Assembly: GCF_058153355.1 (NCBI RefSeq)
Contig: NZ_CM177019.1
Direction: 5' to 3' (one strand)
DNA: 64,000 nt
The position numbers and the translations under genes are program-made. Each line of letters opens with the position of its first letter. Positions within the stretch are counted from its first letter, which is position 1. The notes under the pieces were generated by a model. The model worked only from the letters and a program-made list of their open reading frames with translations, did no database searches and was not told where the DNA came from. Shown one piece after another: positions 31,827-63,423 of the stretch.

Positions 31827-31827
31827 C

Positions 31828-31856: not shown

Positions 31857-31863
31857 AGAAATT

Positions 31864-33687: not shown

Positions 33688-33763
33688 TCCTCTGTAGTTC
33701 AGTCGGTAGAACGGCGGACTGTTAATCCGTATGTCACTGGTTCGAGTCCAGTCAGAGGAGCCA
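33688..33763 (+). tRNA. asnW: tRNA-Asn (GUU)
   Basis: 76-nt TCCTCTGTAGTTCAGTCGGTAGAACGGCGGACTGTTAATCCGTATGTCACTGGTTCGAGTCCAGTCAGAGGAGCCA. Confidence 0.97.
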
Positions 33764-36726: not shown

Positions 36727-36827
36727 GTGTGTCTCCTGTTCCATACAATTACCGCACTTCCGATAGTATGTCACAGGAATGTGAAACAAAAGTGTAAGGC
36801 GAAGATCGGATGATCTTCGCCAGGCTA

Positions 36828-38144
36828 TTAAGCGCGTTGATTGTCTTTCATCAACAAAGCGGTCATTGCGGAAATCAGGCATCCAGCCAGTAAATAAATG
36901 GCGACGCTATGCCAGTTCCCGGCAAAGTAAGTGATAAGTGCAGCGGCAATGAAAGGTGTAAATCCACCGCCAACCACACTGGCAACCTGATATCCGATTC
37001 CAGCACCACTGTAGCGATAACTGGCACCAAACATTTCGGTAAACATCGGTTGTTGCACGCACACCACCATGTCATGCGCAATGTTTGCCAGCATTATGGA
37101 GAAGAAAACTATCCAGAAAATGGATTGTGCTTCAAGCGCCATAAAGAAAGGAAATGCGCTCAACGTTCCGATTAACGCACCTGTGATATAAACTCTGCGG
37201 CGACCAAAACGATCGGCAAGCCAGGCAAAACAGGGAATTGTCAGACAGCTTAGTCCACCTACCAGCAAACCAATATTGAGGAAAAGTTCGCGCGGTAACC
37301 CCATATTCTGGGTTGAATAATTAAGTGCGAAGGCGGTAACGATGTACATCGTCAGCAACTCGCACAGTCGTAGCGCAATAATCTTCAGAAAAGCACCGGG
37401 ATGTCGTAACAGTGCTTCGATAACCGGGATGCGTTTTTGCGCTGCCGCTTGATTATGTTGCTGTTGTTCAAATTCCGCGGACTCCTCCATGCCATTACGC
37501 ACCCACAATGCCCCCAGTACCAGTACGATGCTAAACAGGAAAGGAATGCGCCAGCCCCAGCTTAAAAACTGTTCGTCAGTCGTCATCATACTGATCAATG
37601 AAACCAGTCCGGTCGAAAGCAGTAAACCTACTCCGTAGCCAACTTGTACACCGCTACTGTAAAAGGCTTTTTTATTTTTCGGTGCACTTTCAACGGAAAG
37701 TAACGCCGCGCCTCCCCATTCGCCGCCGACAGCAAATCCCTGAATGGCACGCAGCGTCACCAGTAAAATGGGGGCCCACCACCCAATAGTCGAGAATGAA
37801 GGAAGAATACCAATCAAGGCTGTCGCGATACCCATCATCCAGACGGTCAGCATTAACATGCGCTTACGTCCCAGTCGGTCGCCAAAGTGACCGAAAATGA
37901 CACCGCCGAGCGGACGGAACAGGAATCCGACACCAAAGGTGGCAAATGCGGCGAGCGTTCCCATAGCCGGGCTTACTTGCGGGAAAAACTCGCGATTAAA
38001 CACCAGTGCGGCGGTAATGCCATAGAGTAAAAAATCATACCAGTCGACGACGGCACCAGCGAAACTGCCTAACGCAGCTCGTCGGGCGCGACTTAACGAA
38101 AGCGTCCCTTCATCGGGACGAGTGGAGATGAGCGTGGAGTCCAT
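36828..38144 (-). CDS. shiA: shikimate transporter ShiA (MFS)
   Basis: 438-aa 12-TM MFS protein with GRLGRKR-type loop; synteny. Confidence 0.9.
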   Translation of the reverse strand: MDSTLISTRPDEGTLSLSRARRAALGSFAGAVVDWYDFLLYGITAALVFNREFFPQVSPAMGTLAAFATFGVGFLFRPLGGVIFGHFGDRLGRKRMLMLTVWMMGIATALIGILPSFSTIGWWAPILLVTLRAIQGFAVGGEWGGAALLSVESAPKNKKAFYSSGVQVGYGVGLLLSTGLVSLISMMTTDEQFLSWGWRIPFLFSIVLVLGALWVRNGMEESAEFEQQQHNQAAAQKRIPVIEALLRHPGAFLKIIALRLCELLTMYIVTAFALNYSTQNMGLPRELFLNIGLLVGGLSCLTIPCFAWLADRFGRRRVYITGALIGTLSAFPFFMALEAQSIFWIVFFSIMLANIAHDMVVCVQQPMFTEMFGASYRYSGAGIGYQVASVVGGGFTPFIAAALITYFAGNWHSVAIYLLAGCLISAMTALLMKDNQRA

Positions 38145-38449
38145 AATGATCCTGTTTGTACTGTCTTTTTATAATTAGTATGGAAAAGGTAACTCACATT
38201 GCCGTCGATCTATAAACGAACCTTATGAGACTACCGCGCCAGAGCGCTTCTGCAAATGATTTTATGGCTGATTAACGGCAACATGAAAAATTCGATGGAA
38301 GATGAAATCGCAGGAGTTGCATAAGGATTGAGCAGAGCACCTACAGTTTTGAGATATGAAACATAAAAGTCCGCATATGCACAAAATTGCACCCTGATGA
38401 TTCTGATAGACTGCATTGCATTATAACCAGTAGGGAGGCGAGGTTAGGT

Positions 38450-39520
38450 ATGTTTTTAGCATCATTGTTGAGACGTATTGCATTTAGTTACTACGATTAT
38501 AAAGCTAATAATTTCAATATTGAAAAAACAGAGTTTGTTGTCATCCATATTCCCGATCAGATTGGCGATGCTATGGCTATCTTTCCAGTGATTCGGGCGC
38601 TTGAATTGCATAAAATCAAGCATCTTTTAATAGTTACTTCGACAATTAATTTAGAAGTCTTTAATGCGCTCAAACTTGAACATACTAAATTAACATTAGT
38701 CACAATGACTATGCAGGATCACGCAACATTAAAAGAAATAAAAGATTTAGCGAAGAACATAACACAGCAATACGGTACGCCGGATCTTTGTATAGAGGCA
38801 ATGCGTAAAAAGAACCTGAAAACGATGTTATTTATCAGTCAGTTGAAAGCAAAAACAAATTTTCAGGTTGTTGGTTTAACCATGAAGTGCTACTCCCCTT
38901 TGTGTAAGAACGCCTCCCGGATGGATCAACATCTCCGGGCTCCCGTACCCATGACATGGGCGTTTATGATGCGTGAAGCGGGTTATCCGCCAGTCAGGCC
39001 AATATATGAATTACCATTAAGCGAGCAGGTAATAAATGAAGTACGTGAGGAATTGTGCACTTTAGGATCTTACATTGCGCTTAATTTAGATGGCAGCGTG
39101 CAGGAACGCACATTTTCGTTATCAGTAGCTGAGAAACTCATCGCCAAAATTCAAAGTGATAATGATATGCCAATAGTCATTGTTCATGGACCAAAAGGGG
39201 AAGATAAAGCCCGGAAATTAGCGGGTTGTTATAATAATGTCTACCGGCTATCCTTATCACCCTCGATTAAACGTTCAGCAGCAATCATAAAAGATGCTTA
39301 TATCGCAATAACCCCTGATACCTCAATATTACATATGGCAAGTGCCTATAATACCCCCGTCGTTGCAATTTATGCTGATTACAAAACGCGGTGGCCTGCG
39401 ATGGCAGATATCTCGGAGTCAGTGGTCGTTGGGCAAAAAATTGATCATATAAGTTTGGATGAATTCGGAAAGGCGCTAAAAAGTGCTTTGGAGAGAGTAT
39501 GTGTCAGTACTTACGTATAG
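38450..39520 (+). CDS. yeeL: GT9-family heptosyltransferase-like protein YeeL (intact)
   Basis: GGGAGGCGAGG SD before the ATG at 38450; AT-rich; family assigned from recall and position next to yeeJ. Confidence 0.65.
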   Translation: MFLASLLRRIAFSYYDYKANNFNIEKTEFVVIHIPDQIGDAMAIFPVIRALELHKIKHLLIVTSTINLEVFNALKLEHTKLTLVTMTMQDHATLKEIKDLAKNITQQYGTPDLCIEAMRKKNLKTMLFISQLKAKTNFQVVGLTMKCYSPLCKNASRMDQHLRAPVPMTWAFMMREAGYPPVRPIYELPLSEQVINEVREELCTLGSYIALNLDGSVQERTFSLSVAEKLIAKIQSDNDMPIVIVHGPKGEDKARKLAGCYNNVYRLSLSPSIKRSAAIIKDAYIAITPDTSILHMASAYNTPVVAIYADYKTRWPAMADISESVVVGQKIDHISLDEFGKALKSALERVCVSTYV

Positions 39521-39899
39521 AAGGTAATGCCGATCTATGCTGAACAGGGGACATTAATACCCTGAGGTTGGTCAATCACCACAAAAAAAGCCTTTGAATC
39601 AAAGCAATACTCACCGAATAATAAGGCAACCTGAACTTAAATCCCCGTTAACTGCCATACATTATTATGACTTGCACTGATGTAATTAGCTAAATATTAT
39701 CGTGATTTGACTAAATAGCAAAAATGATAGCTATCAAAAATAGCTCATATACTTTGTTTCCCGCTGCCGTAGAATAGATGGTCCTTCCATGTTTCAAGCA
39801 TTTATTCAAAAAAAAGGGGGCTCGACTGTCTTACGATAAACAGAGAGGGATTGTAAAGTCGAGTGCCCCTAATGGAGCACTCTATAAAAAAATCAACAA

Positions 39900-47888
<7,989 letters not shown>

Positions 47889-48200
47889 GCTTACCTTCCC
47901 TGAACGAGCTAACATAAATGCGCCCTTTCTAGCACAGCGAAAAAATATAAATCCTGATAGCAATATGATTGAAAATTAATAACTTTTCGTTAAGCAGTTT
48001 TGGGTGTGAGTTGCAAGAGGGGAGACTACTGAATAACTCAAGTTTTATAATCGAGGGGAAAATGGTGATGGTGTCCATAGCAAAACGCCCTCAACCATAA
48101 AGATCGAGGGCGCTTAAGATGTCAAAAACCCGCTATCCGTTAAAAAGCAATGCTCAACTAAGGTCAGTGACATTGCGCTAAAAAGCGAATTTTTAGAATT

Positions 48201-48216
48201 TGGCTCCTCTGACTGG
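48201..48216 (-). other. 16-nt remnant of the tRNA-Asn 3' end (asnT position): direct repeat marking an island junction
   Basis: TGGCTCCTCTGACTGG is identical to the 3' end of the three intact tRNA-Asn genes, then diverges; it lies 312 bp upstream of yeeJ, where asnT sits in K-12. Confidence 0.8.
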
Positions 48217-48367
48217 GATCGCCGTAGCCATTAACTGGCTGATTGGTAAGCTAAACCTAAAAGTTGGGGTTGTCAAGACCACCAGAATGACCACCTCTTT
48301 ACTTTGAAACTAACGACATATTTTACGCTCATCCCTCAGTCAATCGTAAGCTAATAAACAACACCAA

Positions 48368-50122
48368 CTACGGTGCTGGTATTATAGTCTCTGCTCCAAA
48401 CCAATTTCCAAGTGTTGTCAGTGCCGCAGGTGACAAAGCTTGGGTGAAAAGGATCGCAAGGCGCTTTTGGGGTCTGGAACAAGCGACGTAAAACAAATTT
48501 CGGTTTCGTTCAAATGAGTCTTGCTTATCGACTGGAATCGTTTGGGCTCCAGCGAATTCCAACATTTCTCCGAAGTTATACTGGTTCCACCCACGCCCAA
48601 CAACAACCAGGACATTCTCAAATTCAGCACCTTTCACACCATGTTTAGTTTCGAATGGAGAATATCCATCAAGATAACGGCGAAGTGATCTGACCTCCGA
48701 ATAGGGAATATTTTTCAGCTTTTCAAGTTCTTTTAATCTTCGGGGCATTTCAACATCAGCCGTTCTGTCAAAATGGAGTAACTCCTGCTCAAATTATTCA
48801 ACCTTATCTGGAAGTCTTGGCTTCCGTTGAGCACGGATGAACTCAATTACGTCGCCAATTGTACCAGTTTCGCGGAGAGCAAGAAGTTGCGTCATTACAT
48901 TGTGCCAACTCACCTTATCTGAATGTCTACGCAACAGTGGTGTAATACCGCCAAGCGCATTAAACATCTCTCCATACTTACGAGCGGTAAAGGCATCACA
49001 GGCGGGTTCCAGTTTGTCTACAAAAAAGGCTATATGTTCATGTTCCTTTTTCGTGAAGGATTCATTGTATTTAAACGCTGCCACTATATTTGAATAGCCC
49101 TGCTGATTGGCTAAAAGTCGATGGGTCAACATGAGAATTTTGGTGTGATTGGGAGAAAAGTCCCAACCATCCTGCTCCAACGTTGTTTTAACTCGTTCCA
49201 GAGTAGCCTGGCCTTCACATAATGGTAAATCACCACTCCAGTGCACGCCTTTTTGACGAACTCCTTGCCAATTGTTTGTATGGAAAACGCGTACTAAACC
49301 TGTAGCTTCGGGATCTTTAACACACTGCGGTAGCTCAGGTCTCATACGATTAAGGGCATCAACAATTATCTTGTCCGAACGAAAATTGGCTTCTTTACCT
49401 ATTTCAACCACGTCCTGATGTTCCAGCTTTCCACATCCACCACCATAGATTTTTTGCCAATGGTCGCCGAAAAAACCAAATAAAGGTGCTCTAGCTTGTC
49501 CAAGAAAATGCCGTTTAATTGCCTCAATCCAGTTTTTATCAGTGTCCTGGTACTCATCGACCAGAATGATTGGAAAGCGTTCTGCAATCACTCTACGGAA
49601 TTTTTCGTGCTCCATGAGTGAGACAGTTAAAGAAAGAACATCGTCATGATGAAGAGTTATACGATGGTCGCGAATAGAGCGATGTCCAAGATTATACTCA
49701 ACACTACGATTCCCAAGGCTTCCACCAACTTCTTCGAGCTTTTCTGTCCATGTTGGCATTGTCTCAATCAGTTCTCTCAACGGTTTTTGAAAGCTGCTTA
49801 TTAACGACCAACAGAACGCATGATTGGTATCACAAAAAACGATGGGGCTTCGATCTGTTCGCGCGACGATTTCATCCTTCGCCACGTTAGTAAAGGTGAT
49901 GCAGGCAATTTGCTGGCTACGTTTTTCAAATAAATCCTTATTTCGCTCAATCAAGAATCGAAGTGCCTTAATAAGGGAATACGTTTTACCCGCACCAGCG
50001 CCAGCTTCCAGCCGGAAGCTTCGTCCTTCACTGAGGCAAGCATACATAGATTCCAAAGCTCGCTGGCTAGCAGCTTCGGCGGGCGAATGGATCTCAGACA
50101 TCAGCGCTGGCTCCTTCTTCAA
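48368..50122 (-). pseudogene. UvrD/PcrA-like SF1 helicase (GajB-like), interrupted by one in-frame TAA
   Basis: Motif I AGAGAGKT and motif II ILVDEYQDTD in the 442-aa ORF; after the TAA at 48794..48796 the same frame continues into the C-terminal helicase domain (YVACSRPQKRLAIL). Confidence 0.7.
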
Positions 50123-52166
50123 TACTAGTTGTGGCTTCTACAACTTGCGCCAATACTGGATCTTGTGTCATAAGCTCATTGCTGCCAGCTAACCAGCGGA
50201 TTCCATCGACTATGTATTTGGGGGCGTTCCATTCTGTCTCTGTAATCGCGTATTTCAATGCAAATTCTGATTTTTTCCACTCAGACGCTTTATCACGGGC
50301 TTCTATTTCCAGTTCCTGAGAATTTCTCCCTACCAGCCCGAATAAAGCCGAATTTGCAAGGATAAATGCATCTTCGAATGTGCGTCCGCAGGGGCCATCT
50401 GTCACTTCTGCACATTGATAGGCAATACGATTTCCATTACGAGCTTTATCATCGTCACTCCTGGCAATCAAACCAGCTAATGTGAAAGGGGTATCTTCAG
50501 AGAACCATGCTTTCAAACAAGCATTACTGGAATATGTACCAAGATGAACAGCACATGCCTGACCTCCTGCTCTTTGGACTGCGTCCAGATCTGTTATGAT
50601 CAGACTCTGAAGCTCAAGAAACGCTAATAACTCGAAGAACAAATGAGCGTAAGCACCGCCGACTTCCATCACCGTTGCGTACTGGCTCGACAGCTTCGGT
50701 CTCTCTGGTTCGGCTGATTCTAGTTTTTTGATGATGACGGGAAGCAATAATCGCTCGCTTAACCCCTCGACGAGAATCGCTTTATCTGCGAAAAACAGAT
50801 CACAACGTGTCAACGTCATGTATTGATGAAGGAATTTTTTATCTTCAATTAGAATATGATTCAGCCCTTTACGCAGATCTTTAATTTTGGTTTTTCGGAC
50901 ACCTTCCTGAGTCCCCTGTGCTGGAGCCCCCAGAAAATAGCGAATACTCTCGAAACCAGCCGCATTGGCAATGTGAGACGAGTGTGTAGACACGACAAAT
51001 TGTACAGGCCAGGGTCTCCTGTCCTCAGTGCCATCCACCAGTTGTTGTGCAATTTTGGCAAGTTGACGAATAAAAACCTCCTGCATTTGTGGATGCAGAT
51101 GGGCTTCTGGTTCTTCAATGAATATCAGGTGTACACCCGGCTCAGTAACTTCAGCACAAAATGCTTTATAGAAACCAGCTAATTGCAAGAGAATAAATAT
51201 CAGATTACGTGTACCAAGACCGTTATATGACTCCGGTAATGCGATTCCGCTATAACCTGAATAGCGAACTTTCGTGAAGTTTGATAGCAACTTGCTAACA
51301 TCGAGCAATGTTTCAGTATGTAACTCCTGTCCTCCCAATCCTGGGTATCCAAAAGTTTCTAGAGCCGGAATCAGACTGTTGAGCTGGTTTCCGAAGTTTG
51401 TGTCAATTTGAGTCTGAATGTCCTGAACTGCACCTTTCAATGCATCAGCAATTTGTTTATCAGCAGCTCCCGCAGATGCCGAAGAGGCTGTTGCGAAAAG
51501 ATTTTCAACCGTTTTAGCCAGTACATCGGATTCTCGGGACGTCACATCATCAAGTCCTCGCTGAGCGTTGATAAAGCCCGATTTGACCAGACCGCGCAAT
51601 GCACTAGGTGGTAACTCGCGACGATTATCAGGATCGTTGGGATCTTCAGCCCATATTTTCACACAGAAATTATTAGGGATACGTTCTCGCAATATACGGA
51701 GGAAAGCGAGGCGGTCTTCTCTAGAAAGTGGCATTTCAGTCTGACTTTCGAGAAATTGTGTCAGATGGCCATCTTTCAATTCGTATCGGACTACTACCTG
51801 CGCTTCAGAACACGCGGGATCCAAATCGATAACAAAGGGACTCAATGGACCTAATTGAGGTTGTGCAGGGTCGTACTGGAATTTCAGTCGAAGTTCAATG
51901 GCGGGAATAAGTTCTCGAACGAGATGATCTTCCATGCCTTCCTTAAGTGCTTCCAGAACATCACAAAAACGGTCGTAGCAGGAACTGGAAAAGTCTTCAA
52001 GTTGGAAAGTAGCACTACCATCTGCTAAGAATCTGCGTATTATTTCTGAGAGTGATGTTTTTCCGCTGTTGTTTCGTCCAACAATGACGGTCGTCTGTTC
52101 CTCCAATACAAGCTCTGCATCAGCTAAAAGACGGAAGTTTTTAATTTCGACCTGATGAATGTGCAT
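50094..52166 (-). CDS. OLD-family ATP-dependent endonuclease (ABC-type ATPase + Toprim; GajA-like)
   Basis: Walker A GRNNSGKT, Walker B/D-loop LIFIEEPEAHLHP, Toprim motifs ILVEGLSE and ITDLD; its end overlaps the helicase start by 29 bp. Confidence 0.8.
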   Translation of the reverse strand: MHIHQVEIKNFRLLADAELVLEEQTTVIVGRNNSGKTSLSEIIRRFLADGSATFQLEDFSSSCYDRFCDVLEALKEGMEDHLVRELIPAIELRLKFQYDPAQPQLGPLSPFVIDLDPACSEAQVVVRYELKDGHLTQFLESQTEMPLSREDRLAFLRILRERIPNNFCVKIWAEDPNDPDNRRELPPSALRGLVKSGFINAQRGLDDVTSRESDVLAKTVENLFATASSASAGAADKQIADALKGAVQDIQTQIDTNFGNQLNSLIPALETFGYPGLGGQELHTETLLDVSKLLSNFTKVRYSGYSGIALPESYNGLGTRNLIFILLQLAGFYKAFCAEVTEPGVHLIFIEEPEAHLHPQMQEVFIRQLAKIAQQLVDGTEDRRPWPVQFVVSTHSSHIANAAGFESIRYFLGAPAQGTQEGVRKTKIKDLRKGLNHILIEDKKFLHQYMTLTRCDLFFADKAILVEGLSERLLLPVIIKKLESAEPERPKLSSQYATVMEVGGAYAHLFFELLAFLELQSLIITDLDAVQRAGGQACAVHLGTYSSNACLKAWFSEDTPFTLAGLIARSDDDKARNGNRIAYQCAEVTDGPCGRTFEDAFILANSALFGLVGRNSQELEIEARDKASEWKKSEFALKYAITETEWNAPKYIVDGIRWLAGSNELMTQDPVLAQVVEATTSIEEGASADV

Positions 52167-52303
52167 ATGTCCCTCATGATCTATTTATAGTCTATCGATA
52201 AATCTGATGTTATTGCTCTACCTGTAATTTTCATTCTTACGATTGTTTTGCAATGCAAAATATACCTCAGGCCATATTTATTCCTGAGGTATGTTTTGGT
52301 ATC

Positions 52304-53802
52304 TCACTCGGTCAAAGAGGCCTCACGAACATCATCCGGTTGAGGTTGGCACTCTTTCCATCGTCGAATAAGCGTTGCTACACAGGGATTACCCGCCAGT
52401 TGATTCATTCTGACCCAGTCAACATCCACTAATCCAGCCAGAAGTTCAGGATTTAGTTCCCCTTGTAATGGGTGCCACTGGCGAATACTGGGCTGGCGCT
52501 GAATTTGAGGTTGAAGGGGAGCCAAACTCCCGACGATAACGTAATTTTGTTCTGGATCATGCCAGAGTCGTGTAATGCCAGGTATGTTTTTCAACCAGTT
52601 TCGAGGATCACCTAAAGGTAAATCAAAAACACGAGAGAGTAATTTATTCCATGACGCTATTAATGACGAACTGGCTTTCTTTGCCAATTTTTTCTCACCT
52701 GCCAGGAGTGCATTTTTTCTTTCTGGCCATTTGGAAAAAATATAACTTTTTAAAATATCGTAGGTAACATTAAGTTCATTATTGTAATAATACTCACGCA
52801 AAGCACAATTCCACAACTCGCACAGCAAGTCTAGTTCACGCATGAGTGTATTTTTATTGGTATCTGATAATTCACCTTCCTCATTAAGTTGCGCTATATA
52901 AAAAGACAGTATCTTTGTATCTGGTAAGAGCCAGTGGTTTAGTGAGAACTGCTGACTTTGAGTATCAAGAACAGTCATTAATGCATCTAAATTCTCAGGG
53001 ATCATATTAGGGGTGTCGTATTTCGGATCCTGAAGAAGAATGGATATTTCTTCCATTCTATGAATAATTATTGTCAATCTCTGAGCAAATCTGGTTAATT
53101 TATCTTCACTGCTGCCAAAACCTTGCGCTATTGATTCAGGCCGATAAGTATAAGGCCATTTTTTATTTAAGAGAGTAAGAAGAGCCTCGACAGAGGTATC
53201 AAACAGTTTCAGCCTTTCATCGCAGGCTTTAACTAAATCCGGGCAAGAAGGATTAAAAGGTAAAATTACTGGGCGGTCTTGTTCAGCGGTGAATAAATAT
53301 CCTTCGGTGATAACCAATAGGTCATGAGTCAGTAAGTCTTTCTGTTCTGTCAGGCTTGTACTGATTCTTGTTTCTTTGCAAAGTAAAAGATGCTTCAACG
53401 CAAGTTCTTTGTACGCAACTTCGGTATTACGCGCCAATGCATCAAGACAGGTCTTTTTCTCAAGATCTTGAATGGCATAGTCGTAATAGCAAGAATCTAT
53501 CGCAGGGATGAGTCGGGTAGTCCCATCGGGAGTATCCTGCTCAATCAATAAATTATCAACAACAGAATCACCACTAAGATCAAACGGATTAACGTTGATA
53601 TGCTGGCACGCAATTTTAGTTCTTAGATTCTGAGTTAACGGATAGCGGTCATCAATTATACCACGGATCTGATCTAACAAAACAAGTATGCATATAGAGC
53701 TGTCTTTTTCCAATTTTTCAAATGATGAGGGTTCTGAATCCGGTAATAATTCCAGCTGTACATCAGGATACTTTTTGTTCAACACCTTTTGTATCTGCGC
53801 AC
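52304..53802 (-). pseudogene. large hypothetical protein gene, 5'-truncated at the junction with the IS66 remnant
   Basis: About 500 codons of unique sequence; the N-terminal 66 codons of the track ORF are antisense IS66 sequence, and no native start codon is retained. Confidence 0.5.
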
Positions 53803-54843
53803 TTCCCCGTGAAACCCGGGTCATCCAACCGGAAGAAGAATGCTGCCCGGCCTGTGGTGGCGGGCTCAGTCCTCTGGGATGTGATGTGTCAGAACAACTG
53901 GAGCTTATCAGCAGCGCCTTTAAGGTTATCGAAACACAACGTCCGAAACTGGCCTGTTGCCGGTGCGACCATATCGTGCAGGCTCCGGTGCCTTCAAAAC
54001 CCATTGCACGCAGTTATGCCGGAGCGGGGCTTCTGGCCCATGTTGTCGCTGGAAAATATGCAGACCATCTGCCGTTATACCGCCAGTCAGAAATATACCG
54101 TCGTCAGGGCGTGGAGCTGAGCCGTGCCACACTGGGGCGCTGGACAGGTGCTGTTGCTGAACTGCTGGAACCGCTGTATGACATCCTGCGCCAGTATGTG
54201 CTGATGCCCGGTAAAGTCCATGCCGATGATATCCCCGTTCCGGTCCAGGAGCCGGGCAGCGGTAAAACAAGGACTGCCCGGCTGTGGGTCTACGTTCGTG
54301 ATGACCGTAACGCCGGTTCGGAAATGCCTCCGGCGGTCTGGTTCGCGTACAGCCCGGACCGGAAAGGTATCCATCCACAGAATCATCTGGCCGGTTACAG
54401 CGGAGTGCTTCAGGCCGATGCTTACGGTGGTTACCGGGCGTTGTACGAATCCGGCAGAATAACGGAAGCCGCATGTATGGCTCATGCCCGGAGAAAAATC
54501 CACGATGTGCATGCAAGAGTGCCCACCGACATCACCACGGAAGCCCTGCAGCGTATCGGTGAACTGTATGCCATCGAGGCAGAGGTCCGGGGCTGTTCAG
54601 CAGAACAGCGTCTGGCGGCAAGAAAAGCCAGAGCCGCGCCACTGATGCAGTCACTGTATGACTGGATACAGCAACAGATGAAAACACTGTCGCGTCACTC
54701 GGACACGGCAAAAGCGTTCGCATACCTGCTGAAACAGTGGGATGCACTGAACGTGTACTGCAGTAATGGCTGGGTGGAAATCGACAACAACATCGCAGAG
54801 AACGCCTTACGGGGAGTGGCCGTAGGCCGGAAAAACTGGCTCT

Positions 54844-56667
54844 GTGTGTCACGAAGGAGTACTTATGGCAACAATGTGAAAATTGCAGCATAAGTTATCC
54901 ATGCTCTGAGGTGGGTGGAGGTGGGCCCTCCGGTCAGGGTTTACAGGAGCACTGACCAAACGACCCGGTGCTGCTTCATTCTAAGGAATGAGGTGGTGAG
55001 CGACTCGGGAAAAGGCAGAGATCTACTGTCACGTGGGGTTCGGGAAGCTGAACGAAAGTAAACTGTCCGATGAAGCATCGAAATCTTAGATGATGTCAAA
55101 ATGGGGCCGTACAGCCGTCCCCTGATAAGCGCAGAAGACACCTGCTTACTGACTGCGCGGCATCCGGTGTGAAGGCAGCAGGATCCCGGGCCAGACCATC
55201 TCAGGGAACGTGAGAACCTGTTTCCGGCACGTATCGGGAAACAGGGGCGGACCCATTCGTAGTAGTGATGAAAGATCTGTAATGGGTCTGGAGCGAAGGG
55301 ATGGGGATCACATTCATTGCAGAAGACACAACCCAAAAGGGGATGACGTAACTGATGCAACGAAAATCATTTGAAATACCAAAAGCACTGGTCTGGGCAT
55401 CATATCTGGATGTGCGTCGCAACAAGGGAGCCCCCGGATGCGACGGGCAGACTTTGAAAATGTTCGACCAGCAACGTGATGGCAATCTATACAAGATCTG
55501 GAACCGGCTATGTTCGGGAACATGGTTTCCGCCACCAGTGCTGGAAAAACGGATCCCGAAGTCGAATGGCAAGGAACGCATTCTGGGGATCCCAACAGTA
55601 TCCGATCGAATTGCTCAGGGAGCGATAAAACTTTTCATGGAAGAAAAGCTTGACCCGATTTTCCATGCTGATTCATATGGTTACCGACCAGGCAAATCAG
55701 CTCATGACGCTCTGAAACAATGTGCCATCCGGTGCTGGCGTTATAGCTGGATACTGGAAGTGGACATCAGTGCGTTTTTCGACCATGTGAGACATGATCT
55801 GGTGCTCAAAGCTCTGGAACACCACGGGATGCCTAAATGGGTCATCCTGTACTGTCGACGCTGGATGGAAGCGCCAATGCAGAGTTGTGAAAATGGAGAA
55901 TTAATAACCCGAACACGAGGCACTCCGCAGGGCGGGGTCATTAGTCCACTACTTGCTAACTTGTTCCTTCACTATGCATTTGATTTGTGGATGGAAAGAG
56001 AATATCGGGGGGTACCGTTTGAGAGGTACGCTGACGATATTGTAGTACATTGTTCACGAATGAGTGATGCAACAAGGCTGAAGAACAGGTTATCGGAGCG
56101 CTTCTCGGAAGTCGGGCTGGTCCTGAATGCAGGGAAAACGAATATCGCCTACATTGACACGTTTAAAAGGAGAAACGTCGCAACGAGTTTCACCTTTCTC
56201 GGATATGACTTCAAAGTGCGTACGCTGAAGAATTTCAAAGGCGAACTGTACCGAAAATGCATGCCGGGTGCGTCAAATGCAGCAATGCGCAAAATAACAG
56301 AAACAATCAAGAAGTGGCGTATACATCGCTCAACAGCTGAGAGTTTGCTGGATTTTGCGAGGCGCTACAATGCGATAGTGAGAGGCTGGATCGAGTACTA
56401 CGGAAAGTTCTGGTCCAGAAATTTCAACTATCGACTGTGGAGTGCAATGCAGTCACGTCTGCTCAAGTGGATGCAGTCTAAATACAGACTTTCGAACCGG
56501 AAGGCTCAGCGAAAGCTGACGCTGGTAAGGAAGGAGTATCCGAAGCTATTTGTTCACTGGTATTTACTACGTGCATCAAATGAGTGATCAAGAGCCGTAT
56601 GACGCGAGAGTGTCACGTACGGTTCCGTGAGCAGCCGGGGAGTGAAATTCTCTCCGGCTGACTCGAC
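54844..56667 (+). mobile_element. bacterial group II intron (1824 bp) in sense orientation within IS66 tnpC
   Basis: Starts GTGTG immediately after the exon 1 homology and ends ...AC before exon 2; domain V-like GAGCCGTATG...CACGTACGGTTC at 56592..56625; contains the RT/maturase ORF. Confidence 0.75.
55355..56587 (+). CDS. group II intron reverse transcriptase/maturase (no endonuclease domain evident)
   Basis: RT motifs including GTPQGGVISPLLANLFL and YADDIVVH, plus a maturase X domain (RGWIEYYG); 410 aa. Confidence 0.85.
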   Translation: MQRKSFEIPKALVWASYLDVRRNKGAPGCDGQTLKMFDQQRDGNLYKIWNRLCSGTWFPPPVLEKRIPKSNGKERILGIPTVSDRIAQGAIKLFMEEKLDPIFHADSYGYRPGKSAHDALKQCAIRCWRYSWILEVDISAFFDHVRHDLVLKALEHHGMPKWVILYCRRWMEAPMQSCENGELITRTRGTPQGGVISPLLANLFLHYAFDLWMEREYRGVPFERYADDIVVHCSRMSDATRLKNRLSERFSEVGLVLNAGKTNIAYIDTFKRRNVATSFTFLGYDFKVRTLKNFKGELYRKCMPGASNAAMRKITETIKKWRIHRSTAESLLDFARRYNAIVRGWIEYYGKFWSRNFNYRLWSAMQSRLLKWMQSKYRLSNRKAQRKLTLVRKEYPKLFVHWYLLRASNE

Positions 56668-56852
56668 TCGCAGGTTCCGACAGCGGTGGCGAACATGCGG
56701 CGGTGTTGTACTCGCTGATCGGCACATGCCGTCTGAACAATGTGGGGCCAGAAAAATGGCTGCGTTACGTCATTGAGCATATCCAGGACTGGCCGGCAAA
56801 CCGGGTACGCGATCTGTTGCCCTGGAAAGTTGATCTGAGCTCTCAGTAAATA

Positions 56853-58796
56853 TCAATACGGTTCTGGCGAGCCGCTTACGTTTAATCGGGAAATCTCATA
56901 TTTTCGGTTCATCATTAATGGCAGAAGGAAGCGTTGATGCTGTTGACGAGAAATTTCACCAGCACGGAGCAGTTTTTCTAGGTTGCGTAACTGGAAACCC
57001 GCATGCGCCATATCATCATTGTTCTCTGTATTGGCCTGAAAAGCGGAAAAGTAATAATGCCGTGATTCCAGCAAATATAAACAGGTCAGATCCATATTTT
57101 TGCCAGATTCAGGCAGGCTGAAATCCAGATTCACACCATTCGTCGCAGAGGCGGTCTGAGTCAGCACAATGACAATACGCCGGGAGGCAAATGCGGCCTG
57201 ATAAGCATCACTAAAGCCCTTTTTCTTCTGACATTCTGCGGTTAACAGACAAATCAGCGCAGGCTCATTATGTATGCTCACTGGGATAAACACATCAGCA
57301 AAATTTTTTAGTAGAGGATCATCAGATAAAGGTTGTTCCATTTTTAACCATGCGAGGTATTCTCTACTTTGTGTTGCTATTGTAGTGGTAAGCCATTTTC
57401 TTAAATAGGCTATGGAATTCACGAAAGCAAGATGCCCCCGGTGTTGAGGTCTTTTTCCCGCAAGATCCAATACATTAAGCAATTTTAGCAGTATATTTTT
57501 TCGATATTCTGATTCGAAATCTGATGAGGGGTCATCGCCATTCTGGAAAAAATCGGGGGCTAGCGAAGCGAGCAGATCAACACAATGCGGGTTATTCTTT
57601 ATGCTATTGAAATCTTGAATCTCAGCATTCAGTTGTGTGTTTCTGATATTTTCTTTGCTGTTATTGATCTCTTCAATAGCTAAATACTGCAACTGGAAAT
57701 CATCAGCCGTCTGGACATAAGGTATCGGTTCTTTAAACCACTCGACAGGTCGTTTTTCAAAAGTTGTTCCCAGAAAACTTTGTGTAACAGCAGGGTTGCG
57801 TGCTTCTGCAATATAACGAAGAGCTGAATTAATCCACCGGACATCGAAGTGATTACAGGCTCTTTCAATATATGACGTAGCCGACAGTGCAAAGACAAGA
57901 TTACGACTGGCGAGAGAAAGCAGCAGACCTTCTGCCGTCGTGGGCAGAAAGGCACGTTTGATCTGTATCCGTAACGGATCGATATCCGTATCTGAGACAT
58001 TCTGTTTCAGCAACCAATTGGTCAAGCCAAAAATACTGGCATGAGTATTTGGCAAAATATTACTTTTCCTTAATTCCCGTAGTTCCGGCAGGTCAGTACG
58101 CGGTAACAAAAATCGGGACATATTGGGCAGGGTTGAGCCGTAGTATGAAGGCCTGTAATCATTAACGGGGTCGAACAGAAGTCGGGTTAACTTTTTAATG
58201 TATTCATACGCTTCATCTTCACTTGCAGTCAGGTCGGTCAACATTAGGCTAAACTGTCGAATGAATTTTTCCATCAAGCGTAAAAAATCACTGATGTCGA
58301 TAGTCTGATCGCTATCCTGAAGCGGAGAGTCTGGCCTGATAATTTCGTATCCATGTTCCGCTTTCCGCATAATAAGCCGTTCACTGGTCACCAGTTGATC
58401 GGAACGGAATAAATAATGCTCACCAAAGGGTTTATTATCCAGATATTGCTGAAGAGGAATAACCAGCGATCTGGCATGTGTTAAATCAGCATGTTTTTCT
58501 GTTAATGCACTATCCAGATCATTAATAAATTTTTCTAGACGTTCACGGATCATAGGTGCAGGTTCCATTTCAACATACTGCATACGTTGTAGTAATCTGC
58601 GTCCCCCGTCGAGCAACTGACCCAGACACTCAGGTGGTTCCTGAACCCATTGCGCCTGTGCCAGATACTCTTGTAATACCTCAGACTGGTAATCAAATTC
58701 ATCGATGAAAATGATGTAATTACGCAGCTCTTTGCTGGACATTTTTACTTTGCGACGCCCATCGTAAAACGATGAAACCATCTTTTGAGTCGTCAT
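56853..58796 (-). CDS. large hypothetical protein; C-terminal 8 codons and stop supplied by the IS66 terminus
   Basis: 647-aa ORF; N-terminal IIFIDEFD resembles a Walker B / DExx motif; the last codons (SGSPEPY) are encoded within the IS66 right inverted repeat. Confidence 0.5.
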   Translation of the reverse strand: MTTQKMVSSFYDGRRKVKMSSKELRNYIIFIDEFDYQSEVLQEYLAQAQWVQEPPECLGQLLDGGRRLLQRMQYVEMEPAPMIRERLEKFINDLDSALTEKHADLTHARSLVIPLQQYLDNKPFGEHYLFRSDQLVTSERLIMRKAEHGYEIIRPDSPLQDSDQTIDISDFLRLMEKFIRQFSLMLTDLTASEDEAYEYIKKLTRLLFDPVNDYRPSYYGSTLPNMSRFLLPRTDLPELRELRKSNILPNTHASIFGLTNWLLKQNVSDTDIDPLRIQIKRAFLPTTAEGLLLSLASRNLVFALSATSYIERACNHFDVRWINSALRYIAEARNPAVTQSFLGTTFEKRPVEWFKEPIPYVQTADDFQLQYLAIEEINNSKENIRNTQLNAEIQDFNSIKNNPHCVDLLASLAPDFFQNGDDPSSDFESEYRKNILLKLLNVLDLAGKRPQHRGHLAFVNSIAYLRKWLTTTIATQSREYLAWLKMEQPLSDDPLLKNFADVFIPVSIHNEPALICLLTAECQKKKGFSDAYQAAFASRRIVIVLTQTASATNGVNLDFSLPESGKNMDLTCLYLLESRHYYFSAFQANTENNDDMAHAGFQLRNLEKLLRAGEISRQQHQRFLLPLMMNRKYEISRLNVSGSPEPY

Positions 58797-58798
58797 GA

Positions 58799-59572
58799 TC
58801 AGCAGGTGTTGCTTTTCGTCACGCCAGGCAATGGCGGGCAGAATGCGCCTGACCCAGACGTGGCGACGGAAATCTGCAACTCGTTGCCTGGCTTGGCTGC
58901 CTGCGTGAGTTCATGTTCTTCGCCATATTTTTCTTTTTGTTTCTTGGCTTCTTTTTCCAGCAATTTGATATTCTGAATCAGAGTTATCTCCACCGCTGCG
59001 CATGATTTGATTAATGACTCTTTCTCACTGGCGATGGCCGTCTGAAAACGCGTCGGATATCCTTTCAGCGATTTGTTAATATGCAGTATGTTTTTGCAAT
59101 TTCTACGCAATTTGTCGGCGATATCCTGAATGGCAAACAAATTTCTGTCTTCCAGGATATTGATGGAGTCAAATGGATCGGGAAGTGAGTCTGCGGAAAT
59201 ATTATTCTCATGAGGCAAGGGGGTGGCCTCGATGGCAGAAACGATCTGTTCATCTTGTGCATAGAGCACGCTGACGGTGAATGGTTCCCCGTTACTGTCT
59301 TTATGCGCTGCCGTTTTCTCATAAATGTCGTGCAAAATATTCCAGCGATGGGTAACCAGAATGGCTTGAGAGCCTGATTTTTTTATCGTCTCCAGCGCCG
59401 GGAGAGCGTTATCGGCATAGCCAGAGCGGTAGAGTGAGCTGGTTTTTCCGCTACCCGTAGGCCCCTGAAGCTGACAAAATCCTGCGATACGACGGGATGT
59501 TTTGGATTTTTTTGCCTGAGAAAGGGTGTATTCAATAACGGCATTGTAGGAACGTATTAAAGGGGCACTCAC
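58799..59572 (-). CDS. P-loop NTPase (helicase motif I-like GPTGSGKT)
   Basis: 257-aa ORF with Walker A GPTGSGKT; stop lies 2 nt before the ATG of the downstream 647-aa ORF. Confidence 0.5.
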   Translation of the reverse strand: MSAPLIRSYNAVIEYTLSQAKKSKTSRRIAGFCQLQGPTGSGKTSSLYRSGYADNALPALETIKKSGSQAILVTHRWNILHDIYEKTAAHKDSNGEPFTVSVLYAQDEQIVSAIEATPLPHENNISADSLPDPFDSINILEDRNLFAIQDIADKLRRNCKNILHINKSLKGYPTRFQTAIASEKESLIKSCAAVEITLIQNIKLLEKEAKKQKEKYGEEHELTQAAKPGNELQISVATSGSGAFCPPLPGVTKSNTC

Positions 59573-60075
59573 ATTTCACCTCATCCGTGTCAGGTTATCG
59601 AAGAGTAGAATTTCAGCAAATTCATGTTACACCGAACGGGTATCATTTCAATGTTTAATAATAATTTCCCCTTATAAAACAACGCTTATAATACATTCGC
59701 AGGTCAGATGATTTATCGGTGTGTTATTTGTTTGAATTTGGTGTTGTGGTTTTCTTTTTTTAACAATCTTCGATCTTCCTTCCACGACTTCCCCTTGCCG
59801 TTTTCAACCGAAAGCGGTATCTTTCACTTGCACCTGCAAAATCAGGTGCCGGGATTGGAACCCCGAAATGTAACCATACTGGCGACACGTGACGCGTCTG
59901 CGTCTTTTTTTATGTCGCGCGCTTAGCTACACCAAAATTATGGTGGGCTGGGCGGGGGCACCGTAAGGTGCGCCGGTTCCAGTATGGCCGGTAGTTCCAA
60001 CCTCGTTCAGTCCACCACCCATGAGATTGGAACCTCTGGTGGTGGTTTTCAAACCACATACTGGAGGCTGCCTTT

Positions 60076-60543
60076 ATGGCTACGATCCCCACTCAGACAC
60101 ACCCGTTACTTGCTGTTCCCTTCAATGCTGCCACAGATTTTACCGTACTGGCAGACCACTGTGAAAACTTCGCCGAAACCCTGATCGAAAGCGACGACCC
60201 GGTGCTGCGGCTGGCGCTTTGCGGGCGGCTTGCCGCCTGTCTGACTCTGCTGCAACCCACGCTGAACGAACCCATCCCGTCCCATCTGACTGACAGCCTG
60301 ACCGTTGATGCTCTACCTGCCGATATGCCCCGATTTGTCCCCGACGCTGAATTACTTTGTGACTACTCACTGACGCTGGCGCAACTTCTTATCGGGCAGG
60401 GGATGCTGCCAAAAATGGAGCAGACGATAACTGGCTTATTATGTGAACTGGTCTGGTATTTTGCCGCTGAAATGAAAGCCCCGCGTTGGCTGCGTACTGC
60501 CGGTGGCGTGAAGTTTATCGATGGTGTGGAGGCCAAAGCATGA
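60076..60543 (+). CDS. hypothetical protein (155 aa)
   Basis: GGAGG SD; stop overlaps the ATG of the Ner-like gene (ATGATG/TGA). Confidence 0.55.
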   Translation: MATIPTQTHPLLAVPFNAATDFTVLADHCENFAETLIESDDPVLRLALCGRLAACLTLLQPTLNEPIPSHLTDSLTVDALPADMPRFVPDAELLCDYSLTLAQLLIGQGMLPKMEQTITGLLCELVWYFAAEMKAPRWLRTAGGVKFIDGVEAKA

Positions 60544-60746
60544 TGCAGTCTGACTGGCATCCTGCCGACATTATCGCCGGGCTGAAAAAACGTGGCACTT
60601 CGCTGTCAGCGCTTTCGCGTCAGGCTGGGCTGGCGTCCTCCACGCTGGCTAATGCGCTTACCCGCCGCTGGCCCAAAGGTGAAAGATTGATTGCCGAAGC
60701 GTTAGATGTTGCGCCTGAGAACATCTGGCCTTCGCGCTATCGCTGA
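60540..60746 (+). CDS. Ner/Nlp-like DNA-binding regulator
   Basis: 68-aa product; WHPADIIAGL...STLANAL...WPKGE...IWPSRY matches the Ner/Nlp family from recall. Confidence 0.75.
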   Translation: MMQSDWHPADIIAGLKKRGTSLSALSRQAGLASSTLANALTRRWPKGERLIAEALDVAPENIWPSRYR

Positions 60747-61093
60747 TGTCCTTCCGGCGCAGCCACGATACGGAAGCTGCGCCGCATTTCGTTTATCTGA
60801 TTTGTCATAATCCTTTGAACCGCAAAAACAGTTTTCTATTATCGGCCTTCTTACCACGAACTAAGCTCCCGCCTGTACAAAATGCTTCATGACCTGAAAG
60901 AAGCGCCTGATGTATCAGGATGGTCGCCGTTTTACCGGCAATGCCGCCTTTGAAAACTGCCGGATCTGTCCTTCGATGGATTAAGGCTTTCTTCATACTT
61001 TATTACGCTAAGGAAATCACAATGAATCTGATGAATAATTGTGCATCGCCTGCCGTAGATGTTATATTAAAATATAATATTCGGAGGTGCTCT

Positions 61094-61351
61094 ATGTATA
61101 CAACTCGCCTGAAAAAGGTCGGCGGATCCATCATGCTGGCGGTTCCCCCCGCCGTGCTGAAAACGCTGGAGCTGTCGACGGACAGCGAAGTGGGTATGAC
61201 CATTGATAATGGCTGCCTGATTATTGAACCCCAGAAACGGCCCCGTTATTCGCTTGAGGAGCTGTTGGCGCAGTGCGATCCGCACGCAGAAATGAGCGAA
61301 GAGGATCGGGAATGGATTGATGCGCCTGCGGTGGGCAAGGAGATCCTGTAA
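61094..61351 (+). CDS. pemI: PemI-like antitoxin (AbrB/MazE fold)
   Basis: GGAGGTG SD; 85-aa product closely resembling recalled PemI (TTRLK.VGGS.ML.VPPA...SL.ELLAQCDP). Confidence 0.85.
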   Translation: MYTTRLKKVGGSIMLAVPPAVLKTLELSTDSEVGMTIDNGCLIIEPQKRPRYSLEELLAQCDPHAEMSEEDREWIDAPAVGKEIL

Positions 61352-61684
61352 ATGGACAGAGGGGAAATCTGGCTGGTTTCACTGGATCCGATTGCAGGTC
61401 ACGAGCAAAGCGGAAAACGTCCGGTGCTTATCGTATCGAAGGCATCGTTTAACAAGCTGACCCGGCTACCCGTTGTTGTTCCCGTTACCAGCGGTGGAAA
61501 CTTCGCCCGTGCAGCCGGTTTTACCGTCTCACTGGACGGTGCGGGAACAAAAACAACGGGCGTTATTCGCTGCGACCAGCCCAGAACCATTGATATGGGA
61601 GCCCGGAGCGGAAAGCGACTGGAACGTATACCCGATGCTGTCGTGAATGAAGTGCTGGCCCGACTGGAGGCCATTCTGAGCTGA
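61352..61684 (+). CDS. pemK: PemK-like mRNA interferase toxin (MazF/PemK family)
   Basis: 110-aa product starting immediately after the pemI stop; RGEIWLVSLDP...GKRPVLIVS pattern. Confidence 0.85.
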   Translation: MDRGEIWLVSLDPIAGHEQSGKRPVLIVSKASFNKLTRLPVVVPVTSGGNFARAAGFTVSLDGAGTKTTGVIRCDQPRTIDMGARSGKRLERIPDAVVNEVLARLEAILS

Positions 61685-61702
61685 TGCTTTTTATGTAAAC
61701 TG

Positions 61703-61740
61703 AATGATGGCGCTGTCATATACAGCGCCATCATTTTTTA
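61703..61740 (+). terminator. rho-independent terminator after pemK
   Basis: 14-bp stem AATGATGGCGCTGT / ACAGCGCCATCATT with 5-nt loop, followed by TTTTTTA. Confidence 0.8.
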
Positions 61741-62122
61741 TAACGACAAGTGATTAAAAAATCCTTTTGCAGGTAAAAACAGTTTTTCCTTTCTCCGCCA
61801 GCGGTACTGGCATAGTCTCCCCCTTGCCCTATGCTGTCGTTGACAGCGCCACGCTTCACAACCTGAAAGAAGCGCCTGTTATCAGGAGGTTGAGCCCTTT
61901 ACCGGTGCAGACCTTTGCAAACACCGGGTCGCAGAACATCGCGACGGAGGCCAGAGTTTTAACACGATACGTCCTTTTACTGCGCCAGCCTGCTGGTCTG
62001 AATCTGCCCCGCGCCGGAATTTTCCCGGTCAGCTTATATTTGCTGACACCCTCAGCACCTTTTACCTCACGGGCTGCGGCATGCATTTGCCGCAAGGCAT
62101 TTGCTGACGCGTGCCCGTAAAA

Positions 62123-62244
62123 CTGCACCAGACGGTAAATTTTCAGACGCTGCACCAGACCCGTGCGTCACTTTAACCGCGCAGAGCGGGAAAGTGACGC
62201 ACGCAATCCCTTTCGACCTGCACCAGAAAACTCAACTGCGCCAG
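62123..62244 (+). repeat. cluster of 4 CTGCACCAG(AC) motifs upstream of the recombinase gene
   Basis: Copies at 62123, 62150, 62218 and (CTGCGCCAG) 62236; a 12-bp-arm palindrome GTGCGTCACTTT / AAAGTGACGCAC at 62163..62202 lies between them. Confidence 0.7.
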
Positions 62245-62535
62245 CTCACGGCTGGAGTCTGACACCGCCTTTTCAGGCCATTTACCTATAAGGAGAACAT
62301 GAATCGATACCGAGGCGGATCCGGACGATCCGGGGGATAACCCGCGCAAGCGGGCGGCTGCTCAGAGAGCACAACCGAAGCCCCACCACACCTCAACGGC
62401 TGCCGCCCCGGCGCTCAGGTATCGTTCGCAGCCCCGACAAAAAAACAGGGGCTATCGGCCTGTGCGCCGGGGAAAGCTGTATCAGTGTTGGTTTTTTGGG
62501 GGATGAGTTTGCGGCAATCATGAAAAGGGGAATGT

Positions 62536-63423
62536 ATGGGGATACTGGAGCAGGAAATGACGCGACTGGCGCAGCAGGCGGGTGGCAGCTACAAAACTGT
62601 GGATGACCGCATCAGGCTGGCGCAGCGGTTTTGTGAGCGTCTGGTTCTGGCGCAGAACGTACAAATCCGCCGGGTGGAGCAGCTTAAGGCGCGGCATATT
62701 GAAGGCTATGTTCGTGAACGGCTGGCGCAGGGCATCACAAAGCGTTCCCTGCAAAATGAGATGGCGGCGGTGCGCTGCATTCTGAAACAGGCCGGGCGTG
62801 ACAGGCTGGCGCAGAGTGAGCGGCTGAATAACCGCTCGCTGGGATTGTCCGGAGCATCCCGTAACGGGACGAAGCTGGCTATTACACTGGAGCACTATCG
62901 TGATGTGCTGGAGACCGCCCGCGTAAAAGATCCGGGGCTGGCGGCAGCGCTGGAGCTCTCAAGGTTGATGGGATTACGTTCGCAGGAGGCGGTGCAGAGT
63001 GTACAGTCGCTGAAAACGTGGATACAGGCGCTGGAGCGTGGTGAGTCCCGGTTAACCGTGGTGTTCGGCACCAAAGGCGGACGGCCCCGCGAGACGATTA
63101 TTCTTGATGCTGGCGTAGTTAAAAAAGCGCTGGATAATGCGCTGGTGGTGGCTGAGGATCGTCACGGCAGGCTGATAGATAAGCCCGATCTGAGAAGCGC
63201 GATGAAATACTGGCACAGCCAGGCGTCGGGTCTTGGTTTAACTGGCGCATATTCCCCGCACTCGTTGCGCTATGCCTGGGCGCAGGATGCTATTCGTCAT
63301 TATCTGGCGCAGGGATTTTGTGAGAAGGAAGCGCTGGCGATGACGGCGATGGATTTGGGTCACGGCGACGGGCGCGGGCGGTATGTGGCGCAGGTTTACG
63401 GGCGAAAGGGGGATGCTGATTGA
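62536..63423 (+). CDS. tyrosine recombinase (phage-integrase family, 295 aa)
   Basis: Box I-like TKGGRPRETII and box II-like HSLRYAWA...LGHGDGRGRYVAQVY (catalytic Tyr); no N-terminal arm-binding domain evident. Confidence 0.75.
   Translation: MGILEQEMTRLAQQAGGSYKTVDDRIRLAQRFCERLVLAQNVQIRRVEQLKARHIEGYVRERLAQGITKRSLQNEMAAVRCILKQAGRDRLAQSERLNNRSLGLSGASRNGTKLAITLEHYRDVLETARVKDPGLAAALELSRLMGLRSQEAVQSVQSLKTWIQALERGESRLTVVFGTKGGRPRETIILDAGVVKKALDNALVVAEDRHGRLIDKPDLRSAMKYWHSQASGLGLTGAYSPHSLRYAWAQDAIRHYLAQGFCEKEALAMTAMDLGHGDGRGRYVAQVYGRKGDAD

Follow-up and report, generated by a model that had tools for sequence, protein, structure and literature searches.

A pseudogenised Gabija (class 2 OLD) system in a decaying defence island at the asparagine-tRNA genes of an Escherichia coli-like chromosome

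We analysed a DNA stretch of 64,000 nucleotides (referred to as the window) from contig NZ_CM177019.1 of assembly GCF_058153355.1, and in particular two adjacent genes on its minus strand, gajA and gajB, which encode an OLD-family nuclease and a UvrD-like helicase. This gene pair is a known kind of system, namely Gabija, which has been pseudogenised by a premature stop codon in gajB and is located in a decaying defence island. Upstream of gajA, the remnants of a second gene pair, here named ddmE-like and ddmD-like, are separated by a fragment of an IS66-family insertion sequence (Table 1).

The first-pass annotation of this locus had described an uninterrupted frame of 690 codons followed by a helicase frame with one TAA; all of these elements were found again at the same coordinates, and both proteins contain all motifs quoted there. 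Translation of 48368..50122 (minus strand) in a single frame yielded 585 codons with one internal stop, which is codon 436 if counted from the ATG at 50101. GajA contains the Walker A motif GRNNSGKT (residues 30–37) and the motifs IFIEEPE (348–354), LVEGLSE (465–471) and TDLD (525–528). In the frame of gajB, GAGAGKT (34–40) and VDEYQD (181–186) precede the stop, while KGAEF (490–494, motif V) and YVACSRP (538–544, motif VI) are located beyond it. The ATG at 50101 is likely the start of gajB. It is preceded by the Shine-Dalgarno sequence GGAG 9 nt away (GAAGGAGCCAGCGCTGATGTCTGA), overlaps the TGA stop codon of gajA by 8 bp (ATGTCTGA) and corresponds to the start annotated in RefSeq orthologues. 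As the GGAG and the RefSeq start choice both point to this ATG, the overlap of 8 bp is favoured over the 29 bp given previously, which resulted from a TTG at 50122 assigned mechanically as start. A scan of positions 48000–52500 for promoters and terminators revealed no signal above shuffled expectation.

The assignment to Gabija, or class 2 OLD, which had been made from motifs and gene arrangement, was substantiated by full-length matches in PADLOC, by Pfam domains, by matches in the PDB and by alignment of the catalytic glutamate. GajA matched profile PDLC00063 of PADLOC with E=3.4e-290, residues 1–672 aligning to positions 1–672 of 679. The intact GajB orthologue of E. coli LF82 matched PDLC00113 with E=4.2e-267 (residues 3–575 on positions 4–575 of 579), and the same profile recognised both pieces of the GajB encoded in the window, the N-terminal piece of 435 aa at positions 4–435 (E=2.9e-203) and the product of a 126-aa open reading frame (ORF) at 48368..48748 at positions 453–575 (E=2.1e-57). 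Pfam domains AAA_15/AAA_21 (1–400) and OLD-like_TOPRIM (458–528) were identified in GajA; LF82 GajB showed AAA_19/UvrD-helicase (25–221) and UvrD_C (344–553), which means that the stop at codon 436 bisects UvrD_C. The best PDB sequence match of the whole GajA protein was the class 2 OLD protein of T. scotoductus (6p74, E=7e-11), and its Toprim part matched best the class 2 OLD proteins of B. pseudomallei (6nk8) and X. campestris (6njv). GajA of B. cereus (E ~4e-5) ranked after these nucleases. The best matches of GajB were B. cereus GajB (E=1.2e-5) and also Rep. Residue E467 of GajA aligned with E379, the catalytic glutamate of B. cereus GajA (8wy4/8jq9), and its TDLD motif with TDND, showing that the Toprim glutamate and the DxD motif are kept. 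In agreement with the gene order of Gabija, gajA directly precedes gajB in the same orientation, and the tandem of an OLD gene with a UvrD/PcrA/Rep-like helicase gene is that of class 2 OLD systems. A complete superfamily 1A (SF1A) helicase, which combines motifs I, II, V and VI in a single chain, is encoded by the LF82 orthologue (577 aa) and is missing in the window. Judged by its sequence, the gene pair belongs to an already catalogued type of Gabija (class 2 OLD) systems with two genes and does not represent a new system.

The structurally characterised Gabija of B. cereus VD045 (PDB codes 8SM3, 8TK0 and 8U7I, among others) likewise consists of a gene for an OLD ATPase-Toprim protein followed by an overlapping gene for a UvrD-like SF1 helicase on the same strand, and the Toprim glutamate and DxD as well as helicase motifs I, II, V and VI are kept in the reading frames of the window. 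The two systems differ in size, GajA being ~110 residues longer than its B. cereus counterpart (578 aa) and GajB ~80 residues longer (494 aa), in sequence, with only remote similarity (E ~1e-5), and in the interruption of GajB at codon 436. The class 2 OLD nucleases 6NK8, 6NJV and 6P74, the top PDB matches, show the same tandem arrangement of OLD and helicase genes under another name; the window differs from them by sequence divergence and the broken helicase only. It had been suggested that proteins larger than the canonical ones may indicate a divergent variant. A new large variant of Gabija was ruled out, since the PADLOC profiles with lengths of 679 and 579 already cover proteins of such sizes. 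Two other OLD-containing systems were rejected as well. For PARIS (AriA/AriB, class 4 OLD), the AriA model covers just the ATPase part (1–400) with E=1e-52, which is far weaker than GajA; furthermore, ATPase and Toprim are fused in one protein here and the partner is a helicase. For retron-OLD (Eco8, class 3), the NCBIfam model retron_eff_Eco8 scored 52 bits against a cutoff of 250, and the sole reverse transcriptase nearby is that of a group II intron (TIGR04416, RF01999/RF00029).

The complete locus (48200–52400, megablast) was found in 19 of 5426 complete E. coli genomes with 99.2% identity, and 18 of these 19 have the helicase annotated as a single coding sequence. In a codon-by-codon comparison, Lys436 is encoded by AAA in both LF82 and A13, whereas the window has TAA at this position. 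The same TAA context recurred in four other assemblies or runs, SRR8656992 (L003/L006), GCA_043012465.1 (L004/L007), GCA_015332025.1 (L005) and SRR34880751 (L008), and the exact GajB products of 435 aa and 126 aa are present in public collections. The orthologous AAA and the recurrence of the stop in four independent assemblies confirm that one in-frame TAA breaks the helicase, as had been read from the window. On the question whether this TAA is specific to the strain, which had been raised at the same time, the nonsense mutation proved specific to a lineage; the stop is absent from LF82 and A13 and common to four near-identical assemblies. These differ from the window by 0–3 mismatches and at most one gap in ~5.5–5.8 kb, and three of the contigs end inside the IS66 fragment beyond the ddmE-like remnant, as expected for a structure like that of the window. 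In SRR34880751, by contrast, the region upstream is uninterrupted and the ddmD-like gene intact, without the lesion caused by IS66 and the intron; at 5350–7798 of L008, an 8-bp deletion was found near the start of the ddmE-like gene (~codon 28), a different route to inactivation of the same module. Because SRR34880751 carries the TAA without the IS66/intron lesion, the TAA in gajB is the older lesion, common to sub-lineages which differ in other lesions.

A sequencing or assembly error in a truly intact gajB would likewise produce a single-base difference from all complete-genome orthologues. We consider such an error to be of almost negligible probability, because the identical TAA context was obtained in four other assemblies or runs produced independently, in one of them (SRR34880751) together with a different state of the neighbouring genes, and because the change is a substitution and no homopolymer indel. 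Independent lesions are found elsewhere. A13 (NZ_CP028761, L002 3169–4902) carries a separate nonsense mutation in gajB, W191*; in EC28, ECO20, ECO21 and S87, ~1.1 kb is left, which covers the 5′ end of gajA and the upstream gene; and further truncated forms of GajA and GajB exist among the protein clusters, e.g. a 463-aa form in E. albertii. The ratios of non-synonymous to synonymous substitution rates (dN/dS) relative to LF82 were 0.27 for gajA, 0.57 for gajB, 0.21 for the ddmE-like and 0.19 for the ddmD-like gene; the counts, for gajB 3 synonymous and 6 non-synonymous changes, are too small to show relaxed selection.

The stop at codon 436 removes residues 436–577 of GajB (142 residues) including motif V and the arginine of motif VI, both of which are required for ATP hydrolysis in SF1A helicases. 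In B. cereus Gabija, neither GajA nor GajB is dispensable for defence in vivo, DNA is cleaved in vitro by GajA on its own, and GajA is contacted by the 1B domain of GajB (PMC10781630). Helicase active-site mutants of a plasmid-borne E. coli Gabija lose stand-alone defence, while synergy of the same system with tmn needs the GajA ATPase domain only, helicase and Toprim mutants being still able to synergise (bioRxiv 10.1101/2022.08.21.504612). As GajB is essential in vivo in the published work, Gabija is most probably inactive in the lineage of the window. The earlier proposal of an inactivated system is thus supported by the AAA codon of the orthologues, the requirement for GajB (PMC10781630) and the lack of defence in helicase mutants (bioRxiv 10.1101/2022.08.21.504612).

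Several points weigh against a complete loss of function. The truncated GajB retains domains 1A and 1B, including the region known to contact GajA in B. cereus, and could still bind GajA. The 126-aa ORF with the C-terminal helicase motifs stays open and matches the GajB profile at 453–575, and gajA is intact with Walker A, Walker B and Toprim residues kept. Moreover, the characterised proteins of B. cereus share little identity with those of the window (PDB E ~1e-5), no experimentally tested member of the subfamily of 690-aa GajA and 577-aa GajB was found in the literature, and loss of defence is inferred from the published requirement for GajB. One can speculate that function persists because the 435-aa and 126-aa pieces reassemble, because the stop is read through at a low level or because GajA acts without an active helicase, e.g. 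as a nucleotide-sensing partner of another system, for which the tmn synergy based on the GajA ATPase domain alone (bioRxiv 10.1101/2022.08.21.504612) would be a precedent. These routes appear improbable. No Shine-Dalgarno sequence precedes the ATG at 48748, and residues 436–451 would be absent from a reassembled helicase. In E. coli, termination is most efficient at TAA with T as the next base, which argues against read-through. No tmn gene was encountered in the examined parts of the island, in which no search aimed at tmn was made. As the assemblies sharing the TAA are nearly identical (at most 3 mismatches in 5.5 kb) and the lineage hence is young, there was no time for decay, and the intactness of gajA is uninformative on retained function. 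The independent truncations in A13 (W191*) and the gajA stubs in EC28, ECO20 and ECO21 fit a dispensable system.

For the intact pair, the mechanism presumably corresponds to that of other Gabija systems, from which it is carried over. GajA would be a tetrameric Toprim nuclease gated by ATP/NTP, and GajB, a UvrD-like SF1A helicase/ATPase, would dock on it via the 1B domain to form a 4:4 complex, which would attack phage DNA and require both proteins in vivo. In the lineage of the window, one A to T change converted Lys436 of GajB into the TAA stop at the cost of half of UvrD_C including motif V and the arginine of motif VI (YVACSRP); the truncated helicase/ATPase would be non-functional and defence would be lost. 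According to this proposal, the gajA ORF would still be intact only owing to the very young age of the lineage. The island is decaying as a whole, since the adjoining DdmDE-like module has been destroyed as well. Defence finders based on hidden Markov models would still score both GajB fragments strongly, and the dead locus could be counted as an active Gabija system. As the broken pieces of GajB still score strongly, checks for pseudogenes matter in surveys of defensomes.

Table 1. Features of the defence island and its surroundings in the window
Feature	Position	Strand	Remark
tRNA-Asn genes	29455-29530, 31864-31939, 33688-33763		3′ ends identical to 16-nt repeat
16-nt copy of tRNA-Asn 3′ end, distal att-type repeat (island end)	48201..48216		adjoins yeeJ, just beyond gajB
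gajB pseudogene, UvrD-like SF1 helicase	48368..50101	-	577 codons, broken at codon 436
premature TAA stop in gajB, Lys436 AAA to TAA, next base T	48794..48796	-	codon comparison with LF82
gajA, OLD-family (class 2) ABC-ATPase and Toprim nuclease	50094..52166	-	690 aa, intact ORF
ddmE-like Argonaute-fold gene, 3′ remnant (~codons 320-818), first ~957 nt deleted	52304..53799	-	alignment to LF82 818-aa gene
IS66-family internal fragment (tnpC), left side truncated	53800..54843	+	NCBIfam transpos_IS66, E=1.7e-123
group II intron inside IS66 fragment, 1824 bp	54844..56667	+	RF01999 54917-55033; RF00029 56590-56667
group II intron reverse transcriptase/maturase ORF	55355..56587	+	TIGR04416 group_II_RT_mat, E=6e-118
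IS66 right end, abuts truncated ddmD-like gene	56668..56881	+	96.7% identical to window 10587-10800
ddmD-like helicase-nuclease gene, 5′ remnant (nt 1-2689 of 3903)	56879..59572	-	alignment to LF82 1300-aa gene
small-RNA Rfam matches isrK, C4, EFASI	59830-59910, 59936-60022, 62299-62428	+

The gene pair upstream of gajA is wrecked in the window and intact in LF82, where genes for 1300-aa and 818-aa proteins, annotated as hypothetical and separated by a gap of 3 bp, are located upstream of gajA in the same orientation (intact ddmE-like and ddmD-like copies at L001 12105–14561 and 14565–18467, respectively). In the window, the ddmD-like remnant additionally contains a 5-bp duplication near 58889–58893, which leads to a frameshift with a stop at codon 258. 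The IS66 fragment at 53800–54843 is 99.3% identical to window positions 9543–10586, which belong to a fuller copy of the element (~9543–10800). The boundaries of the group II intron were set by self-alignment of the IS66 sequences within the window, and the intron is located exactly between the equivalents of positions 10586 and 10587 of the fuller copy. In the simplest history, IS66 would have inserted into the ddmD-like gene first, followed by an adjacent deletion which took the left part of IS66 together with the facing ends of the two genes, 3′ in the ddmD-like and 5′ in the ddmE-like one. At some point, IS66 would also have been entered by the group II intron. This destroyed neighbour had been missed in the first-pass annotation, as had the end of the asn-tRNA island.

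Searches with the single 1300-aa and 818-aa LF82 sequences gave no match in Pfam, PADLOC v2, NCBIfam or the PDB, and the identity of the pair was resolved only by a family profile and by structure predictions. Homologue searches yielded ~70 protein clusters for each partner, all annotated as hypothetical, and both families share the same scattered range comprising Enterobacterales, Vibrio, Alteromonas, Rheinheimera, cyanobacteria and Spirochaeta. Invariant motifs of the 1300-aa family are GxTGxGK (Walker A), DE, SA(T), QxxGRxxR and a nuclease signature E..D...D-A-K. In the PDB, the profile of this family matched only DdmD of L. casei (9ix4_A, E=2.2e-10), with the helicase and nuclease regions aligned in four collinear segments. 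Residues 1–1200 of the LF82 protein were modelled by AlphaFold2 with a predicted local distance difference test (pLDDT) value of 85, and the 20 best PDB matches found for this model by Foldseek were all DdmD (E=4e-31 to 8e-25), followed by a short L. casei DdmDE chain (9ixm_C, 4e-10) and XPD/DinG-type helicases (~1e-8). The model of the 818-aa protein (pLDDT 86, predicted template modelling score 0.83) matched DdmE of L. casei and V. cholerae with E=2e-21 to 5e-12, and other Argonautes with 5e-10 or weaker.

The intact LF82 orthologue thus shows the predicted architecture of DdmD, a superfamily 2 (SF2) helicase with a C-terminal PD-(D/E)xK nuclease, and a DdmE-type partner with an Argonaute fold is encoded directly downstream; the pair is kept in seven distant loci. 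The assignment of the upstream pair to a deeply divergent DdmDE-type module, consisting of a putative helicase-nuclease and an Argonaute-like protein, is well supported by the family profile and the structural models. As in DdmDE of V. cholerae and L. casei, a ~1300-aa SF2 helicase with a PD-(D/E)xK nuclease is followed by a ~820-aa Argonaute-fold protein, and DdmD leads the fold matches by 15–20 orders of magnitude and DdmE by ~11. The module differs in that identity to the solved proteins amounts to 11–16%, both LF82-type proteins are ~100 residues longer than DdmD and DdmE, and both genes are destroyed in the window; a function in plasmid defence is putative.

ApsAB, an anti-plasmid system of E. 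coli ST38, has been placed in a broad superfamily extending from ApsA to DdmD and is often partly deleted or inactivated (PMC11096173). The pair described here resembles it as a helicase-nuclease and Argonaute-like module which is located on E. coli genomic islands and is inactivated in the window, whereas the LF82-type partner is similar to DdmE rather than to ApsB. Identity with ApsAB was rejected, as profile comparison with partial ApsA and ApsB sequences revealed no significant similarity (hhalign E=0.63 and 0.044). For ApsB, the published first ~400 residues were compared, and for ApsA the ~400 residues printed for an ApsA-like entry which is 100% identical and lacks the N-terminus. Neither the N-terminal peptides nor the accessions of the LF82-type proteins occur in the homologue tables and the supplement of PMC11096173.

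The four genes ddmD-like, ddmE-like, gajA and gajB might also constitute one composite system. They form the same one-strand cassette in E. coli LF82 and Serratia quinivorans with 79–86% protein identity, and the ddmE-like gene is separated from gajA by just 137 bp. This cassette, however, looks like one island shared by both species, with the same PemK and AlpA-type neighbours. Of the seven distant loci with the upstream pair, only that of Serratia quinivorans contains GajAB; in Alteromonas, Spirochaeta, Photorhabdus, Rheinheimera, a metagenome-assembled genome (MAG) and a cyanobacterium, tblastn detected no relative of GajA or GajB next to the pair. In addition, Gabija is described in the literature as a system of two genes which acts autonomously. 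We therefore regard a composite system as very improbable and, because six distant loci contain the pair but no Gabija, treat Gabija and the DdmDE-like pair as independent neighbours. In the cyanobacterial MAG GCA_038531675.1 (L009 11629–13132), an AAA_15/AAA_21 ATPase stub of 138 aa, truncated by a DDE transposase, comes after the DdmDE-like pair, so that here too an ATPase adjoins the module; no likeness of this stub to GajA was detectable by tblastn.

The defence island has undergone turnover within one young lineage by four independent lesions, namely the nonsense mutation in gajB, the 5-bp duplication, the IS66-associated deletion with the group II intron, and the 8-bp deletion in the sister sample. 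It is conceivable, though rather unlikely, that the upstream pair represents an unrecognised divergent DdmDE-type branch which accompanies Gabija on the asn-tRNA island of Enterobacterales, and that serial inactivation of both modules was selected since the island blocked a useful plasmid. Within this proposal, homology to DdmDE is well supported, while activity against plasmids is conjecture and selection for loss even more so. An experimental precedent is the inactivation of ApsAB under carriage of pOXA-48 (PMC11096173). The ~70 unannotated clusters found for each DdmDE-like partner are candidates for plasmid defence and a more useful outcome than the Gabija result.

The window derives from an E. 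coli-like chromosome; positions 28000–40000, which contain yeeO, amn, shiA, cbl and three tRNA-Asn genes, are 98.5% identical to the best-matching complete E. coli genome. The gajAB genes are the distal end of a mobile island which uses asn-tRNA genes as integration sites in E. coli and related bacteria. The LF82 copy of this island is bordered by the same 16-nt repeat and is integrated at the tRNA-Asn gene beside nac, and since it is located there, the island has used more than one asn-tRNA gene in different strains. The LF82 island further contains an integrase pseudogene, a second integrase-domain gene, a PemK/MazF-type toxin-antitoxin pair and insertion sequences. The end of the island with the full tRNA gene and the integrase probably lies past the right edge of the window. 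The island end adjoins an intact yeeJ-like ORF (39900–47963, minus strand) for an invasin/intimin-type adhesin of 2687 aa with IAT_beta and Big_1 repeats.

Rfam matches above the gathering score were obtained in the island on the plus strand for the Hfq-binding RNA isrK, the C4 antisense RNA and the EFASI RNA. Small RNAs of these types are typical of elements derived from phages or islands. The backbone genes of the island at 60076–63423, which include a gene for a hypothetical protein of 155 aa, are 94% identical to LF82. Also among them are genes for a PemK/MazF-type toxin and an AbrB/MazE-type antitoxin at ~61094–61684 and an integrase-domain ORF at 62536–63423 with only weak similarity to XerC.

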